44,920 bases of DNA from a virus (taxonomy: Duplodnaviria > Heunggongvirae > Uroviricota > Caudoviricetes): IMG/VR virus record IMGVR_UViG_3300022173_000112, positions 66,916 through 111,835 of that record. One strand, 5' to 3'. The notes beneath the pieces are model-generated. The model made no database searches, had not been told where the DNA came from, and saw only the letters and a list, made by a program, of their open reading frames with translations. Shown piece after piece: positions 8,600 to 34,032 of this stretch. Numbering within the stretch: the first letter of the stretch is position 1; each line of letters begins with the position of its first letter. The position numbers and the translations under genes were made by a program.

Positions 8600-9103
8600 A
8601 TGGACTACCTAGACAAAGCTAGAGAGAACATGGCGAAGCATATCGACAAACTGGTGTTGGCAGAAGCCGCAGCACCTTTAGGAGTGACCATGACTGAACC
8701 AATCAAGAACGGCGACTTTGTCGTCAAGGATTCTGGCGAACGTAAGGAGTTTGAAACCGGAGCAGTTCGCGACAAGTCAAGTGGCAAAGGTCGCTTCGAC
8801 TTGATTCCTCCACATCCTCTCCGCCGATTAGCCAAGCTTTACGAAGCTGGCTCTCTCAAGTATGCGGAACGGAACTGGGAGAAAGGAATCCCAACTGGTC
8901 GGTTCTTCGATAGTGCTTTCCGGCATCTGATGGATTATGCGGAAGGTGATCGAAGTGAGGATCACTTGATTGCTGTTGCGTGGAACGTGTTTGGTATGGT
9001 TTGGACTCAGGAGCAAGTACGACTCGGCAGACTGCCGGAATCATTGCTGACGTTTCCTGAGCCAAAGCCACTCGATGGGACAACGAAAGACGTACCGTTC
9101 TAG
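8600..9103 (+). CDS. dATP/dGTP diphosphohydrolase domain protein (DUF5664-like)
   Basis: KDSGERKEFETGAVRD...KGRFDLIP...LYEAGSLKYAERNWEKG...DSAFRHL...EDHLIAVAWN, the typical family pattern. Confidence 0.88.
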   Translation: MDYLDKARENMAKHIDKLVLAEAAAPLGVTMTEPIKNGDFVVKDSGERKEFETGAVRDKSSGKGRFDLIPPHPLRRLAKLYEAGSLKYAERNWEKGIPTGRFFDSAFRHLMDYAEGDRSEDHLIAVAWNVFGMVWTQEQVRLGRLPESLLTFPEPKPLDGTTKDVPF

Positions 9104-9191: not shown

Positions 9192-9195
9192 ATCT

Positions 9196-9269
<74 letters not shown>

Positions 9270-9274
9270 ATGTA

Positions 9275-9356
9275 GGGAACGTGGCCGAACGGTAAGGCAC
9301 AGCCCTGATAAGGCTGCGTGCGAAAGCACTAGCAGGTTCGACTCCTGCCGATCCCA
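9275..9356 (+). tRNA. trnI: tRNA with GAT (Ile) anticodon and a type II long variable arm
   Basis: GGGAACG/CGATCCC, D-arm GCC/GGC, CAGCC-CT GAT AA-GGCTG, variable arm GTGC-GAAA-GCAC, GCAGG-TTCGACT-CCTGC, A73. Confidence 0.85.
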
Positions 9357-9357
9357 A

Positions 9358-9463
9358 TAGTTGATTCGCGTCAGGGTCAACTAGACGCACTTCGGGTGCG
9401 GATGCAACTGGGCTTACATAAGCAGGCTTACCAGAGCTATGCAAGACTCCTAACGGAGTAGTC
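9358..9463 (+). ncRNA. unassigned structured RNA candidate B (could be the spoVG leader)
   Basis: Consecutive hairpins tagttga/tcaacta, cgcac-TTCG-ggtgcg, ctgg..gctta/aagc..ccag and actcc-TAAC-ggagt. Confidence 0.4.
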
Positions 9464-9465
9464 CG

Positions 9466-9819
9466 ATGGCAATCACAATCACCGAGATCAATATTCGGAA
9501 GCCCCAATATCTTGATTCTCGGCTCCTGGCGTTTGTTACTGTAGTCTTCGATAACTGCTTCGCAATCACGGACCTGAGGCTATTGCAGCTGAAAGACGGT
9601 CCTTTCCTGGCGATGCCTTCGAAGAAAGCATCTACGCCGTGCCAGCATTGCAGACGTAAAAATACGTTTGATTGCAGGTACTGCGGTAAGTGCGGCAAGC
9701 TCTTGGAGTTCAAGGCGGAAGAGCATTTTGACGTAGCTTTTCCGATCAATAACGAGTTTCGTCAATTCATGCTACAGTCGATCCTTGAGAAATACAAGGC
9801 TGAGACACCTGTAGCATAA
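9466..9819 (+). CDS. spoVG: SpoVG family protein with CxxC/CxxC Zn-ribbon insert
   Basis: ITEINIR...LLAFVTVVFDNCFAITDLRLL...GPFLAMPSKK...HFDVAFPINNEFR; insert CQHC...CGKC. Confidence 0.92.
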   Translation: MAITITEINIRKPQYLDSRLLAFVTVVFDNCFAITDLRLLQLKDGPFLAMPSKKASTPCQHCRRKNTFDCRYCGKCGKLLEFKAEEHFDVAFPINNEFRQFMLQSILEKYKAETPVA

Positions 9820-9825
9820 TCGTAT

Positions 9826-9905
9826 CGGTGAGTGATTTGTGGCATTAAGGCTCAGGCGTCCAACCCTTCGGGGCGTGACCAGAAAGTGTCTCCACATACT
9901 CACCG
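9826..9905 (+). ncRNA. unassigned structured RNA candidate C
   Basis: Long irregular hairpin: cggtgagt/actcaccg, tgtgg/ccaca, apical ccc-TTCG-ggg; ends 4 nt before tRNA-Thr. Confidence 0.45.
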
Positions 9906-9909
9906 TGTT

Positions 9910-9983
9910 GCCCGTATAGCTACAATTGGTAGAGCGCCTGCCTTGTAAGCAGGGGGTTGAGAGTTCGAGTCTCTCTGCGGGCT
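9910..9983 (+). tRNA. trnT: tRNA-Thr(TGT)
   Basis: GCCCGTA/TGCGGGC, CCTGC-CT TGT AA-GCAGG, TTCGAGT. Confidence 0.92.
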
Positions 9984-9991
9984 TTTGATTT

Positions 9992-10080
9992 GGGCGCGTG
10001 TGCCGAGCGGCAAAGGCGGCATGCTGTAAACGTGCTGTGGAATAGCTATCCACTCGCAGGTTCGAGTCCTGCCGTGCCCA
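9992..10080 (+). tRNA. trnY: tRNA-Tyr(GTA)
   Basis: GGGCGCG/CGTGCCC, GCATG-CT GTA AA-CGTGC, long variable arm GTGGA/TCCAC, TTCGAGT. Confidence 0.9.
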
Positions 10081-10099
10081 CTTCTTTTGGAGTGTCAAC

Positions 10100-10333
10100 A
10101 TGCTGAACTGGTTTCTCTCCCTGTTCAAAAAGTATCGGGATGGTGAGTCCCGAGTCGGCCGAATCAATTGGCACCTGGATCATCAACGGTATACCGTTGC
10201 TCTCTGTGGTGGCAATGAAATCGTGACAGCCTACAATGTGAATGACCATGAAGAAGTCATTCCACGCGGATCGGCTGTTACGCTCATCCACCAAAACGAT
10301 ACGTGGTACTTCCATGTGCCGGTGTGGCTATGA
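10100..10333 (+). CDS. hypothetical protein
   Basis: 77 aa with GGAG RBS; ATGA overlap with the HAD gene. Confidence 0.65.
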   Translation: MLNWFLSLFKKYRDGESRVGRINWHLDHQRYTVALCGGNEIVTAYNVNDHEEVIPRGSAVTLIHQNDTWYFHVPVWL

Positions 10334-10746
10334 GCATTCTGTTCCTTGACATTGATGGAGTCCTGAACGGCCACCAGAGACATGCTAATGGGTATTGCGG
10401 TATTGATTCCCATTGCATGAGTAACCTGAACCATGTAATCGCACAAACCAAATGTCTGGTTGTAATCAGTTCCGCTTGGCGGTACATGATGCCAGAAGCC
10501 ATGACCATTACTGGCTTTGAGTATTTACTCAAGAGTCATGGTTTGAATGGTAGTGTCTACGGTTACACTGAACGTGACGAAGTAATCACGAAACGCGAAG
10601 ATCAGATTTTGGCCTATCCCAAGCAAGGCAAATGGGCCGTTGTCGATGACCTTCCTCTAGCCATAGAGAACTTCGTCCGAACTGATGGTCGTATCGGTAT
10701 GCAACGGCATGAAGCCGAGATGCTGATTAAATTGTTGGCCGGTTAA
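10330..10746 (+). CDS. HAD-family phosphatase (Swiss Army Knife RNA-repair-like HAD domain)
   Basis: ILFLDIDGVLN (DxD), VVISSAWR, WAVVDDL. Start moved to MSILF. Confidence 0.88.
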   Translation: MSILFLDIDGVLNGHQRHANGYCGIDSHCMSNLNHVIAQTKCLVVISSAWRYMMPEAMTITGFEYLLKSHGLNGSVYGYTERDEVITKREDQILAYPKQGKWAVVDDLPLAIENFVRTDGRIGMQRHEAEMLIKLLAG

Positions 10747-10809
10747 CTCAATTGGTAGAGTGCCAGTCCTACACACTGGATGTTACAGGTTCAAGTCCTG
10801 TACCGGCTA
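10737..10809 (+). tRNA. trnV: tRNA-Val(TAC), with C at position 33
   Basis: GGCCGGT/ACCGGCT, CCAGT-CC TAC AC-ACTGG, TTCAAGT; overlaps the last 10 nt of the HAD gene. Confidence 0.85.
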
Positions 10810-10812
10810 CTT

Positions 10813-10906
10813 CCCTCTACGAGTCGAAAGACAGCACTGTTATCGTGTCACCGATGAATGAGAAAGGTGGACCTGGCGTATCCAGGGTGAATAGTCGGCT
10901 AGAGGG
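10813..10906 (+). ncRNA. unassigned structured RNA candidate D (multi-branch)
   Basis: Closing stem ccctcta/tagaggg; gtc-GAAA-gac, actgtt/aatagt, cacc/ggtg, cctgg-cgtat-ccagg. Confidence 0.5.
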
Positions 10907-10912
10907 ATTACC

Positions 10913-10969
10913 ATGCCTGACGATGATGAAGATGAAGAAGACGAGGACATTGATATCTATTGTCCTTAA
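10913..10969 (+). CDS. putative 18-aa acidic peptide MPDDDEDEEDEDIDIYCP
   Basis: ATG 6 nt after AGAGGG; stop 1 nt before tRNA-Glu. Confidence 0.35.
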   Translation: MPDDDEDEEDEDIDIYCP

Positions 10970-10970
10970 A

Positions 10971-11043
10971 GGCGAGTGAGATGTCTTGGCGATATCACCG
11001 GGCTTTCAATCCGGGCAGATGGGTTCGAATCCCATACTCGTCA
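10971..11043 (+). tRNA. trnE: tRNA-Glu(TTC), atypical D-arm
   Basis: GGCGAGT/ACTCGTC, CCGGG-CT TTC AA-TCCGG, ATGGG-TTCGAAT-CCCAT; positions 8-9 are GA instead of TA/TG. Confidence 0.75.
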
Positions 11044-11057
11044 CTCCTTAATGGGAG

Positions 11058-11657
11058 ATGACTATGTTCAAGTTACTCTTAATCAGTCTGATGTTGGGCG
11101 CGACTCCTGCGGAGATCACGCAAAGTACAGTCAAAGTAGATTATCGATTCGGCGACAACATCCTCGTTGGGTCTGGAACGATAATCGAAACCACCGACGT
11201 GAGCTTTAGTGTACTGACGTGTTCGCATTGCGTCCGACATCATGTGCCCAATGGAAAGAGCAAAATCATTCTTCAAGATGGTCGAAGCTACCCGGCAACG
11301 ATTATCAAGATTGACCCGGACCGTGACCTATGCCTCTTGAAGTCGGACTTCAAGATCGAGATCAAACCTTCCGAGTTCGCGGACGATGATTACAAAGATG
11401 GAACAAAGATTCAGGTGTCGGGGTTCTCGGCTGGTCGGTTCTATTCTCTACGGAATGGAACCGTGACCAATGACTTTGGTTGGAAGGTTATCAACAAGGA
11501 CAAAGTCATCTCACCGATTCTGAATGTACACGCCGTGCAAGGTGATTCGGGTGGTGGCGTGTATCGCGATGGAAAACAGATAGGTGTGCTATGGGGCGGT
11601 ACCCCTGGTGGCATCTACGTGAATCGGATGGATACGATTAAGTCGTTCTTGAAGTGA
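11058..11657 (+). CDS. trypsin-like (S1) serine protease with predicted signal peptide
   Basis: GSGTII, VLTCSHCV (His), DRDLCLL (Asp), QGDSGGGV (Ser); hydrophobic N-terminus FKLLLISLMLGA. Confidence 0.93.
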   Translation: MTMFKLLLISLMLGATPAEITQSTVKVDYRFGDNILVGSGTIIETTDVSFSVLTCSHCVRHHVPNGKSKIILQDGRSYPATIIKIDPDRDLCLLKSDFKIEIKPSEFADDDYKDGTKIQVSGFSAGRFYSLRNGTVTNDFGWKVINKDKVISPILNVHAVQGDSGGGVYRDGKQIGVLWGGTPGGIYVNRMDTIKSFLK

Positions 11658-11662
11658 ATTTA

Positions 11663-11723
11663 TCGGGCCGCTCCTGCAATGTGGAGATGATGCATCAGGG
11701 TGGTGTAAACCCATCCGGTCCGA
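11663..11723 (+). ncRNA. tRNA-like mini RNA lacking an anticodon arm (candidate E)
   Basis: tcgggcc/ggtccga, ctcc-TGCAATGT-ggag, tga-tgca-tca, gggtgg-TGTAAAC-ccatcc. Confidence 0.45.
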
Positions 11724-11727
11724 CCCT

Positions 11728-11800
11728 GCGGGTATAGCTCAATTGGCAGAGCGTCAGTTTTCCAAACTGGATGTTGAGGGTTCGAGTCCCTCTACCCGCA
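11728..11800 (+). tRNA. trnG: tRNA-Gly(TCC)
   Basis: GCGGGTA/TACCCGC, TCAGT-TT TCC AA-ACTGG, TTCGAGT; discriminator is A. Confidence 0.92.
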
Positions 11801-11805
11801 CTATG

Positions 11806-11934
11806 CCTGATCGTCTTACCTTTGGCAAGGCAGCCGGTCAGGACAGCGGTGGATTAGAGCGTGTGGGGCTACACCACCAGGCTTATTACGAGTAGAGAGG
11901 TTGTGCCAACAGCCATACTGTAATCGGTCAAGCC
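11806..11934 (+). ncRNA. unassigned structured RNA candidate F (three hairpins)
   Basis: cctgatcg/cggtcagg (11806-11842), ggtgg/ccacc (11848-11878), and ggctt-attac-agta-ggttgt GCCA acagcc-tact-gtaat-aagcc (11880-11934). Confidence 0.4.
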
Positions 11935-11955
11935 CTTCCTTTTAGGAGATTCACA

Positions 11956-12393
11956 ATGATCGCAGGTACTGTCCTTATTTCAAGGAACAATGACGAGGCT
12001 TTGAACACAAGTCCTGGTCATTGGAACCATTGTGCAATCTACGTGGGTGGTGGACGCATCATCCATTCCCTACGTGATCAAGGTGTTGTCGAAACAGTCT
12101 ATGGCGAATGGCTCGCTTATGACTGTACTTGGGTATCCTTGATTCCTATTGATGTGGCGGTTGGATACAAGGCTGCATTCAAAGCGACACAGCTTGTAGG
12201 CTTGCCGTATCGTACTCTGTCAAGCGTGTTTCTGCGTGCTAGGAACCTTAGCCGTGGAATCAATTGTGTTGATGCAGCGGTCAGGGTTCCTTACGAGTTT
12301 GCTTTAGGGAAGAGCCTCAGTTCGATTCATTGGCCTGACCATGTAATCGAACTCACAGGTGTGTTCACAAAAGGACCGACAAGTTCAGACTGA
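11956..12393 (+). CDS. permuted papain-like NlpC/P60 amidase (YiiX/YebB-like)
   Basis: GTVLISR, GHWNHCAIYVG (His first), VGLPY, INCVD (Cys second); AGGAG RBS. Confidence 0.85.
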   Translation: MIAGTVLISRNNDEALNTSPGHWNHCAIYVGGGRIIHSLRDQGVVETVYGEWLAYDCTWVSLIPIDVAVGYKAAFKATQLVGLPYRTLSSVFLRARNLSRGINCVDAAVRVPYEFALGKSLSSIHWPDHVIELTGVFTKGPTSSD

Positions 12394-12398
12394 TTCTC

Positions 12399-12473
12399 GG
12401 GCCGTTAGCTCCTAACTGGTAGAGCGCCTGCCTTGCAAGCAGGAGGTTGTGGGTTCAAATCCCACACGGTCCA
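12399..12473 (+). tRNA. trnA: tRNA-Ala(TGC)
   Basis: GGGCCGT/ACGGTCC with G3:U70, CCTGC-CT TGC AA-GCAGG, TTCAAAT. Confidence 0.94.
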
Positions 12474-12485
12474 TTGGAGATTGAA

Positions 12486-12647
12486 ATGGAACTTTTAATT
12501 AAGAAGTGGCGTGCCGAAGCAAATGATTTGGGGCGTCGCTTAAGAAGTGGTTCTTACATTGACCAACAACAACGTGCTGCTTATAGTGCGAAGATGAAAA
12601 CTCTTCGTGCTTGCATCAAAGAACTCAAAGGGATTGGTTATGGCTAG
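12486..12647 (+). CDS. hypothetical protein (53 aa)
   Basis: Start at MELLIKK after GGAG; helical and basic. Confidence 0.55.
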   Translation: MELLIKKWRAEANDLGRRLRSGSYIDQQQRAAYSAKMKTLRACIKELKGIGYG

Positions 12648-12816
12648 ACCATTGCTAGACTTGGTTGATCAAGTTGCGAAGGAACCAACGAAGAGAGACT
12701 TGCAAGAACTTCGACTAAGAATCGAGGCGATCCAACGCGGGGTTGATGATTACCCGCCAGACCTTTGCATGGTGCATGTTAAGGATATCTTGCAAGGAAA
12801 TTGTATCACTTATTGA
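12640..12816 (+). CDS. hypothetical protein (58 aa)
   Basis: Start at MARPLL, overlapping the previous stop. Confidence 0.55.
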   Translation: MARPLLDLVDQVAKEPTKRDLQELRLRIEAIQRGVDDYPPDLCMVHVKDILQGNCITY

Positions 12817-12821
12817 AACAT

Positions 12822-12894
12822 TCCCCGGTAGCACAACTGGTAGTGCAACTCGCTGTTAACGAGTAGGTTGTAGGTTCGAATCCTACCTGGGGAG
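12822..12894 (+). tRNA. trnN: tRNA-Asn(GTT)
   Basis: TCCCCGG/CTGGGGA, ACTCG-CT GTT AA-CGAGT, TTCGAAT, G73. Confidence 0.94.
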
Positions 12895-12896
12895 CT

Positions 12897-13058
12897 TGTG
12901 TGGACAAGACGGTTAATCGGCTAGTCAATCGAAAGCCGGGAGACAGGCTCGTCCGGGCCATCAGCACTCGTCAGAGTATTGATGGCCCGGCCTAGACCTC
13001 CGGATAGTGCGATTGCGGGTTGACTCGTTGCGACTAGCCCTCGAAAGCAGTCCACACA
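12897..13058 (+). ncRNA. unassigned structured RNA candidate G (162 nt)
   Basis: Closing stem tgtgtggac/gtccacaca, ggctagtc/gactagcc, and a 17-bp hairpin ccgggccatcagcactc-GTCA-gagtattgatggcccgg. Confidence 0.65.
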
Positions 13059-13062
13059 TTAA

Positions 13063-13134
13063 CGGTGCGTTGCTGGAAGGCCATAGCACGTGGTTTGGGA
13101 CCACGGGATGACGGTTCGATTCCGTCCGTGCCGA
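13063..13134 (+). tRNA. trnP: tRNA-Pro(TGG)
   Basis: CGGTGCG/CGTGCCG with C1-G72 and A73, CGTGG-TT TGG GA-CCACG, TTCGATT. Confidence 0.88.
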
Positions 13135-33941: not shown

Positions 33942-33996
33942 GGGTTGTATTCGACGCTCTCTCCGCCTAAAGGCAAGTGCTTTCGTTATACAACCC
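33942..33996 (-). ncRNA. small structured element between the coat terminator and tRNA-Asp
   Basis: 9-bp closing stem gggttgtat/atacaaccc with inner gcc-ttta-ggc (minus strand). Confidence 0.3.
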
Positions 33997-34003
33997 GAAA
34001 ATT

Positions 34004-34032
34004 ACGGGGCAACCTCAATGAGGTTGCCCCGT
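34004..34032 (-). terminator. hairpin/terminator after the major capsid gene
   Basis: 13-bp stem acggggcaacctc/gaggttgccccgt, followed on the minus strand by AATTTT. Confidence 0.75.

Follow-up and report, generated by a model that had tools for sequence, protein, structure and literature searches.

A phage tRNA gene with an isoleucine anticodon, a class II-type variable arm and probable isoleucine identity

An uncultured tailed phage carries a bona fide tRNA gene in which the isoleucine anticodon GAU is set in a body of class II shape. Judged from its sequence, the product is predicted to be a working elongator tRNA for AUC and AUU codons that is most likely charged with Ile by the host IleRS despite its shape, a reading to which we give a probability of roughly 0.6. 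Our confidence is limited because the gene is a singleton in an uncultured phage and has one acceptor mismatch. To our knowledge, both textbooks and published work on tRNA identity restrict long variable arms in bacteria to tRNAs for Leu, Ser, Tyr and Sec. That rule is broken by a long-arm tRNA-Ile that is conserved and covaries, and equally by long-arm tRNAs for His, Asn, Cys, Thr and Met that retain the identity marks of their isotypes. In our search of the literature, we came across no account of phage tRNAs for Ile with a long arm, nor of long-arm tRNAs of class I isotypes as a group.

Gene, fold and genomic surroundings

The stretch of DNA analysed here (the window, 44,920 nt) is the final 44.9 kb of a single-contig virus genome of 111,835 bp, rated 100% complete by CheckV. 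The phage, of about 112 kb, encodes a gpA-type large terminase, a P22-type coat protein, a tape-measure protein, a primase and a Dam-type methylase, and its terminase is at most 24% identical to that of any cultured phage. The genome contains 21 tRNA genes, ten of which lie co-oriented in an island at window positions 9195–13134 (+ strand). The long-arm tRNA is the only Ile-GAU tRNA of the phage. Leu tRNA genes are absent from the set, and CCA is encoded in 0 of the 21 genes. Neither a gene for a CCA-adding enzyme nor one for RtcB was found in the phage genome. The gene, its parts and its upstream neighbours are as follows (window coordinates).

8600–9103, + strand: 167-aa ORF with the N-terminal domain of a dATP/dGTP diphosphohydrolase (MazZ-like; Pfam PF18909, E = 3.9e-21)
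9195–9270, + strand: tRNA-Arg(ACG), ending 4 nt upstream of the long-arm tRNA (ARAGORN, Rfam)
9275–9356, + strand: long-arm tRNA gene, 82 nt, with anticodon GAU, class II shape (long variable arm), A73 and no encoded CCA (ARAGORN, Rfam, MFE fold, model R1)
9275–9281 paired with 9349–9355, + strand: acceptor stem, with an A:A mismatch at 9279/9351 (5:68) (sequence, ARAGORN drawing)
9284–9298, + strand: D arm, with a 3-bp stem GCC/GGC and a 9-nt loop (A14 A15 C16 G18 G19 U20 A21)
9300–9316, + strand: anticodon arm, with a 5-bp stem and the loop CTGATAA; GAT at 9307–9309, followed by A37 and A38
9317–9331, + strand: variable region of 15 nt, consisting of C, a 4-bp stem GTGC/GCAC (9318–9321/9326–9329) closed by a GAAA loop (9322–9325), and unpaired TA
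9332–9348, + strand: T arm, with a 5-bp stem and the loop TTCGACT
9356, + strand: discriminator A73 (sequence)

ARAGORN called tRNA-Ile(gat) at 9275–9356 (+), and its score on the Rfam tRNA model RF00005 was 55.6 bits (E = 2e-9; gathering score, 29), which places the RNA in the tRNA family. Its MFE fold is exactly the cloverleaf plus the extra arm (−32.4 kcal/mol, z = −2.5 relative to shuffles). The initial annotation, made from the sequence alone, had described an anticodon loop CT GAT AA, a 3-bp D stem, a 4-bp variable-arm stem with a GAAA loop, A73 and an A:A mismatch in the acceptor stem; all of these can be read directly from the sequence, and the loop agrees with the ARAGORN call. Residue 20a is absent from the D arm, and G13 and A22 are unpaired. 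Instead of the class I shape, with a variable loop of 4–5 nt and a 4-bp D stem, the RNA has a 15-nt region forming a hairpin and a 3-bp D stem. Across the sampled loci, a simple count of pairs gave six of seven acceptor pairs for about 10% of the 260 distinct tRNAs.

The tRNA-Arg(ACG) and the long-arm tRNA are presumably made on one precursor. No promoter- or terminator-like site was found between them, and a promoter and terminator scan of the tRNA island returned nothing exceeding chance. Despite the MazZ-like ORF at 8600–9103, no PurZ-type adenylosuccinate synthase was found in the genome. Directly 3' of the long-arm tRNA lies an ORF of the SpoVG family (PF04026, E = 3e-20; 9466–9819, +), which is kept in the relative G001 described below, and a tRNA-Tyr(GUA) gene of 90 nt follows at 9992–10081 (+).

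Identity elements and the meaning of ATT and ATC codons

The elements read by bacterial IleRS are the anticodon, t6A37 and the discriminator; in E. coli, stem positions contribute as minor determinants (PMC9976931). The major determinants are all present in the long-arm tRNA (G34 A35 U36, A37 as the t6A site, A38 and A73). The minor E. coli determinants C4-G69, U12-A23 (which appears in PMC9976931 as U12-G23), C29-G41 and G16/D20/D21 are replaced here by A4-U69, C12-G23 and G29-C41, with C16. The pair G29-C41 is likewise found in class I Ile tRNAs of IMG/VR contigs that bear the identical anticodon arm. This 17-nt arm occurs in 16 IMG/VR contigs, and the tRNAs that ARAGORN called on it (5 loci) are all class I tRNA-Ile(GAU), with 0 long-arm forms. 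A sequencing error in the anticodon of this single copy may have occurred but is an unneeded explanation, as the arm is Ile-type along its full length and the same architecture is seen elsewhere.

Set against class I tRNA-Ile(GAU), the long-arm tRNA has the same anticodon, the same loop with A37 and A38, A73, the same 7/5 acceptor/T-stem geometry, the anticodon arm found in the IMG/VR contigs, and the same slot in the tRNA repertoire. It differs in its variable region (15 nt with a 4-bp hairpin, as opposed to 4–5 nt), in its 3-bp D stem with a short loop, and in the E. coli marks at 4:69, 12:23 and 29:41.

It resembles the class II tRNAs for Ser, Tyr and Leu in its long variable arm, in a D stem of 3 bp with G13/A22 and in where G18G19 is placed, and those for Tyr and Leu also in A73. 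Its D arm is most Ser-like, and its T arm and acceptor are most like those of the phage's own tRNA-Tyr. It departs from all three in its foreign anticodon, and it lacks G73 (Ser), U35 (Tyr), and A15-U48 with A20a (E. coli Leu). The body had initially been described as Leu-type, which proved too specific: over the D region (positions 8–26), the mean identity was 0.68 (maximum 0.83) to Ser tRNAs of phage arrays and 0.62 (maximum 0.70) to Leu tRNAs, and G18G19 directly follows A14-A15-C16, a trait of Ser and Tyr tRNAs.

The Ser- and Tyr-like body raises the question of charging by SerRS or TyrRS. G73 is a mark of tRNA-Ser that blocks LeuRS and TyrRS, and TyrRS requires A73 together with U35 (PMC9976931). 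The D and variable arms are Ser-like, and the T arm, the acceptor and A73 fit tRNA-Tyr, but A73 stands in place of the G73 that accompanies the long arm in tRNA-Ser, and position 35 is A. The variable region of 15 nt lies at the low end of the 15–21 nt found in Ser tRNAs of the sampled arrays. With no Ser at conserved ATT/ATC columns in the codon test described below, we regard charging by either enzyme as very improbable.

The meaning of the codons was examined by aligning crude whole-genome ORFs of the phage to 80 related IMG/VR loci, a column being taken as conserved when at least 80% of the homologues agree. ATT and ATC occur 1,504 times in the phage (52 per 1000 codons, about 5%). The homologue residues at these columns were Ile in 37–38%, Val in 17% and Leu in 15–16%. 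Among the conserved columns, 31 were Ile, 6 Leu, 1 Gln and 0 Ser; for comparison, conserved columns at the phage's Leu codons were Leu in 109 cases and Ile in 2. On these alignments ATT/ATC is Ile in the phage proteins, a result about what the genes mean and not about the amino acid that the long-arm tRNA delivers. A tRNA inserting Leu or Ser at these codons would therefore hit every protein.

These results bear on the proposal, made in the initial annotation, that the RNA could carry Leu to AUC and AUU codons. It would then be a Leu-accepting or dual Ile/Leu missense tRNA, charged by the host LeuRS through A73 and its class II shape. The precedent is given by nematode nev-tRNAs, which are class II-shaped, derived from tRNA-Leu, carry non-Leu/Ser anticodons including one for Ile (UAU), correspond to rare codons, and were charged only with Leu in vitro (PMC3333845). 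For E. coli LeuRS, A73 and the hinge elements A15-U48, G18G19 and A20a are required, and neither the anticodon nor the variable arm matters (PMC9976931). The long-arm tRNA has A73 and the long variable arm, and the phage itself encodes no tRNA-Leu, all of which would suit charging with Leu. It has neither a Leu anticodon nor a Leu-like body, and by the E. coli rules, which the host may not share, the hinge marks are missing: only U20 stands between G19 and A21, leaving no 20a, and A15 lies opposite the A that ends the variable region, not a U. Whereas nev-tRNAs are eukaryotic and Leu-derived, the phage tRNA shows no kinship to tRNA-Leu and reads common Ile codons, at which misreading would be damaging throughout the proteome. 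We therefore found the proposal unsupported, also in view of the class I Ile-GAU tRNA of the closest relative and the varied discriminators of other long-arm tRNAs (both described below), and consider delivery of Leu improbable. Some leucylation may nevertheless occur, A73 being a key determinant for LeuRS (and for TyrRS). On paper, Ile is the best fit to the determinants and Leu the only serious rival.

Another known group of unusual tRNAs, the allo-tRNAs, have 8/4 or 9/3 acceptor/T-stem geometry, a tRNA-Sec-like D arm, and G73 or U73, implying Ser identity (PMC5389517). The long-arm tRNA, with 7/5 geometry and A73, does not belong to them.

Long-arm tRNAs in other phage arrays

No match to the long-arm tRNA or to a neighbouring 1067-aa ORF was found by blastn/tblastn in cultured phages. 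The 80 loci around homologues of the primase and the 80 around homologues of the upstream ORF contained no long-arm GAU tRNA, and exact-pattern scans of the arm junction with the anticodon left free gave no match in IMG/VR or metagenome contigs. Among complete genomes the closest relative is G001 (107 kb, with a primase 67% identical), and it also lacks a long-arm GAU tRNA. It carries a normal class I Ile-GAU tRNA of 72 nt and an Ile-UAU tRNA, elsewhere in the genome, and in a blastn synteny comparison the ORF at 8600–9103, tRNA-Arg(ACG) and the long-arm tRNA fall together in an alignment gap. Because G001 has the class I form and no long-arm form, the long-arm gene occupies the repertoire slot of a class I Ile-GAU tRNA.

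A wider family was sought with degenerate patterns that place class II spacing around CTGATAA, with A73 left free; conservation of GAU within the family thus holds by construction, because the patterns fixed the anticodon loop. Ten further loci of viral or phage-like character yielded well-formed long-arm GAU tRNAs (L099, L101, L102, L103, L105, L107, L108, L110, L111 and L132, the last being a phage-like array in a MAG), and about a dozen more came from metagenome contigs. The search for this architecture in related phages, called for in the initial annotation, thus gave no orthologue in syntenic loci or in G001, but did reveal diverged long-arm GAU tRNAs in the arrays of other phages, about 20 in total, with GAU, A73, a 7-bp acceptor and a short extra arm. 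They measure 82–89 nt and have a variable region of 13–17 nt, made up of a 3–4-bp hairpin, often closed by a GNRA loop, and then nucleotides that are unpaired and mostly A-rich. The long-arm tRNA belongs to this group by its 7-bp acceptor, 3-bp D stem, GAU, variable-region length, A73 and location in a phage array. The position where 20a would be is mostly U in the family, not A, which is a further point against recognition by LeuRS.

Covariation was assessed in 11 members. Ninety-seven percent of cells were paired, double changes occurred in 19 of 24 pairs, 0 of 500 shuffles scored as high, and no slid register came close. In the variable-arm helix all four pairs showed compensatory changes (93% of cells paired), and such changes were seen in every helix except the D stem. 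Model R1 gave the long-arm tRNA 77.1 bits, the sequence itself being one of its 10 training rows, and gave the untrained member L132 81.8 bits. Within the metagenome set, 13 copies have an intact acceptor and A73, and all 13 lie in loci with at least two tRNAs (mostly at least five); lone metagenome copies are nearly all Ser-like, with 5–7-bp arms and broken acceptors or a non-A discriminator. About 20 GAT matches in bacterial genomes were set aside as a different thing, since nearly all are Ser-like, mostly with a broken acceptor or non-A discriminator, and most are lone genes. BLAST of four family members against cultured phages retrieved no Ile member, the sole match being a long-arm tRNA-Asn in phage SB9. 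In three loci a class I Ile-GAU tRNA is present in the same array as the long-arm copy (L099 and L107, where it lies directly beside it, and L132); there, the long-arm copy is an addition and not a replacement, because the class I gene shares the array.

The family bears on a further alternative, that the gene is a decaying or newly formed chimera, derived by copying a class II tRNA, either the tRNA-Tyr of this phage or a tRNA-Ser(GCU) that has undergone C35A, and no longer, or not yet, useful. The gene is a singleton with no orthologue, is absent from G001 and has A:A at 5:68. With the anticodon loop masked, the closest match in the collection is the tRNA-Tyr encoded by the phage itself 640 nt downstream, with a core identity of 0.81 (rank 6 of 210 within-genome pairs), 16 of 17 T-arm nucleotides identical, and GGG..CG in the acceptor and A73 in common. 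The loop of tRNA-Ser(GCU) is one base apart from that of the long-arm tRNA, and Ser-like GAT copies, mostly with broken acceptors, occur in bacterial genomes. Core identities between unrelated isotypes are equally high, however (e.g. Lys-Ala, 0.85). Descent from the own tRNA-Tyr was accordingly not adopted, and the match is kept only as a lead on origin, because unrelated isotypes reach similar identities; it may hint at duplication of the tRNA-Tyr gene followed by replacement of the anticodon arm. All four arms and the extra arm of the long-arm tRNA are intact, and its score is well over the tRNA threshold. It shares its architecture with a family that is independent of it, covaries and has A73, whereas the broken Ser-like copies mostly have a non-A discriminator. 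It is the only Ile-GAU tRNA of the phage, with a class I counterpart in G001, and a single acceptor mismatch is common. We thus consider a useless chimera unlikely, and favour a functional tRNA-Ile.

Long arms also occur in these arrays on tRNAs whose anticodons are those for His, Asn, Cys, Thr and Met, and the discriminator goes with the isotype: G-1:C73 for His, G73 in 4 of 5 for Asn, U73 for Cys, U73 in 1 of 2 for Thr, and A73 for Met. The long-arm design therefore appears to keep the identity given by the anticodon, because recruitment by LeuRS would demand A73 in all of them, which is not the case. The isotype-specific discriminators are the strongest of the indirect arguments for predicting that these tRNAs are charged according to their anticodons.

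One such tRNA is encoded by a cultured phage, the T5-like Salmonella phage vB_SenS_SB9 (MK867835; L112 5994–6079), whose 86-nt tRNA-Asn(GUU) has a long arm and G73-CCA, and is annotated as a plain tRNA-Asn. It scored 71 bits on the Ile family model. Like the long-arm tRNA-Ile, it has a Ser-like D arm, a short extra hairpin followed by unpaired A-rich nucleotides, and the discriminator of its own isotype; it differs in its anticodon and in G73-CCA.

Proposed charging route and possible role of the arm

We infer the charging by IleRS, the expression of the gene and the purpose of its arm along the following lines. As part of the + strand tRNA island, the gene would be transcribed together with tRNA-Arg(ACG), which ends 4 nt before it, and the tRNA would be excised by host RNase P with 3' trimming. 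The host CCA-adding enzyme would supply the CCA end, and A37 would be modified to t6A, a modification with which the class II body of E. coli tRNA-Ser(GCU) is compatible. IleRS would then recognise G34-A35-U36, t6A37, A38 and A73. IleRS is a class I synthetase, at which the variable region should face the solvent, and class II tRNAs are already handled by EF-Tu and the ribosome; for these reasons, the added arm should be tolerated. The arm would most likely alter the surface seen by a binder of ordinary tRNA-Ile; candidates are a tRNA-targeting nuclease or toxin of the host and a phage product that eliminates the tRNAs of the host.

Three further genes of the phage are relevant to this last step (window coordinates for the first, genome coordinates for the other two).

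10303–10746, + strand: 147-aa ORF with the HAD domain PF18143 (HAD_SAK_2) of 'Swiss Army Knife' RNA-repair proteins (E = 3e-18), in the tRNA island between tRNA-Tyr and tRNA-Val
G000:C1:54720–55328 (L142 1468–2664), − strand: 398-aa RNA ligase with RNA_ligase (PF09414) and a PHA02142 OB fold, outside the window, adjoining tRNA-Gln
G000:C1:39240–40058, − strand: TROVE/Ro60 gene, outside the window, adjoining tRNA-His

With an RNA ligase, a HAD RNA-repair domain and Ro60, the phage is thus equipped for conflicts involving RNA damage. The initial annotation had offered, as its second possibility, an Ile tRNA reshaped to escape host anticodon nucleases. Its first half is the reading we favour, on the major IleRS marks, the family, the discriminators and the meaning of ATT/ATC; its second half, the motive, draws on the genome context, from which the arm may plausibly serve escape from tRNA-targeting factors. 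Phage tRNAs are known to evade anticodon nucleases by loop changes (PMC10264068), and bacterial Schlafens cleave tRNAs of host and phage alike in the anticodon arm (PMC13056530). By analogy, we would guess that a change in the body could spare IleRS, EF-Tu and the ribosome and yet block a tRNA-binding effector. More generally, and tentatively, tRNAs of class I isotypes (Ile, Asn, His, Cys, Thr and Met) may repeatedly have been given a class II-type arm by phages, so as to keep charging and decoding while evading immune nucleases or toxins, or the phages' own depletion of host tRNA. This would be a structural counter-defence distinct from mutation of the anticodon loop.

The same RNA-related genes could instead point to a decoy or partner RNA, which soaks up a host effector that targets tRNA or works together with the phage's Ro60 and RNA-repair proteins. 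The class I Ile-GAU tRNAs in the same arrays in L099, L107 and L132 would agree with this, so that the long-arm copy there is not simply a spare. However, a decoy needs neither a 7-bp acceptor nor an isotype-correct discriminator, and both are kept by the long-arm Ile tRNAs and by those for His, Asn, Cys and Thr; in the present phage, moreover, the long-arm copy is the only Ile-GAU tRNA. A decoy role therefore seems to us quite improbable, and we return to an Ile-charged elongator. If the long-arm tRNAs are charged normally, an extra arm on an Ile tRNA is acceptable to IleRS, to the enzymes that make t6A, to EF-Tu and to the ribosome, and the question becomes what selects for the arm, an arms race over tRNA cleavage, itself an active field of research, being the obvious candidate. 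If they are mischarged, they would represent a natural missense system in phages.

Several other tRNAs of unusual form were observed in the sampled loci. A Pseudomonadota MAG (L129 2766–2858, +) contains a perfect tRNA-Ser body (7-bp acceptor, G73-CCA and long arm) with a GAT anticodon, at the usual place of tRNA-Ser(GCU) ahead of tRNA-Arg(ACG); this is either a C35A variant that puts Ser at Ile codons or an error in the MAG consensus. At L132 3783–3873, 6954–7027 and 7349–7438, L107 5197–5291 and L099 5200–5278, there are Ile(UAU) tRNAs of 79–95 nt adjoining long-arm Ile(GAU), a 74-nt tRNA-Leu(CAG) and a 90-nt tRNA-Asn. L108 (8464–8548, −) encodes an 85-nt long-arm tRNA with a TGC (Ala) anticodon, lacking G3:U70 and with U73. 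The tRNA-Leu(UAA) of SB9 (L112 3971–4047) is only 77 nt long, a class I length. The present phage genome (G000) has three tRNAs with a CAT anticodon (33949–34023, 46347–46421 and 100698–100774), one of which may be the Ile2 (lysidine) tRNA for AUA, a codon covered in G001 by the UAU tRNA.
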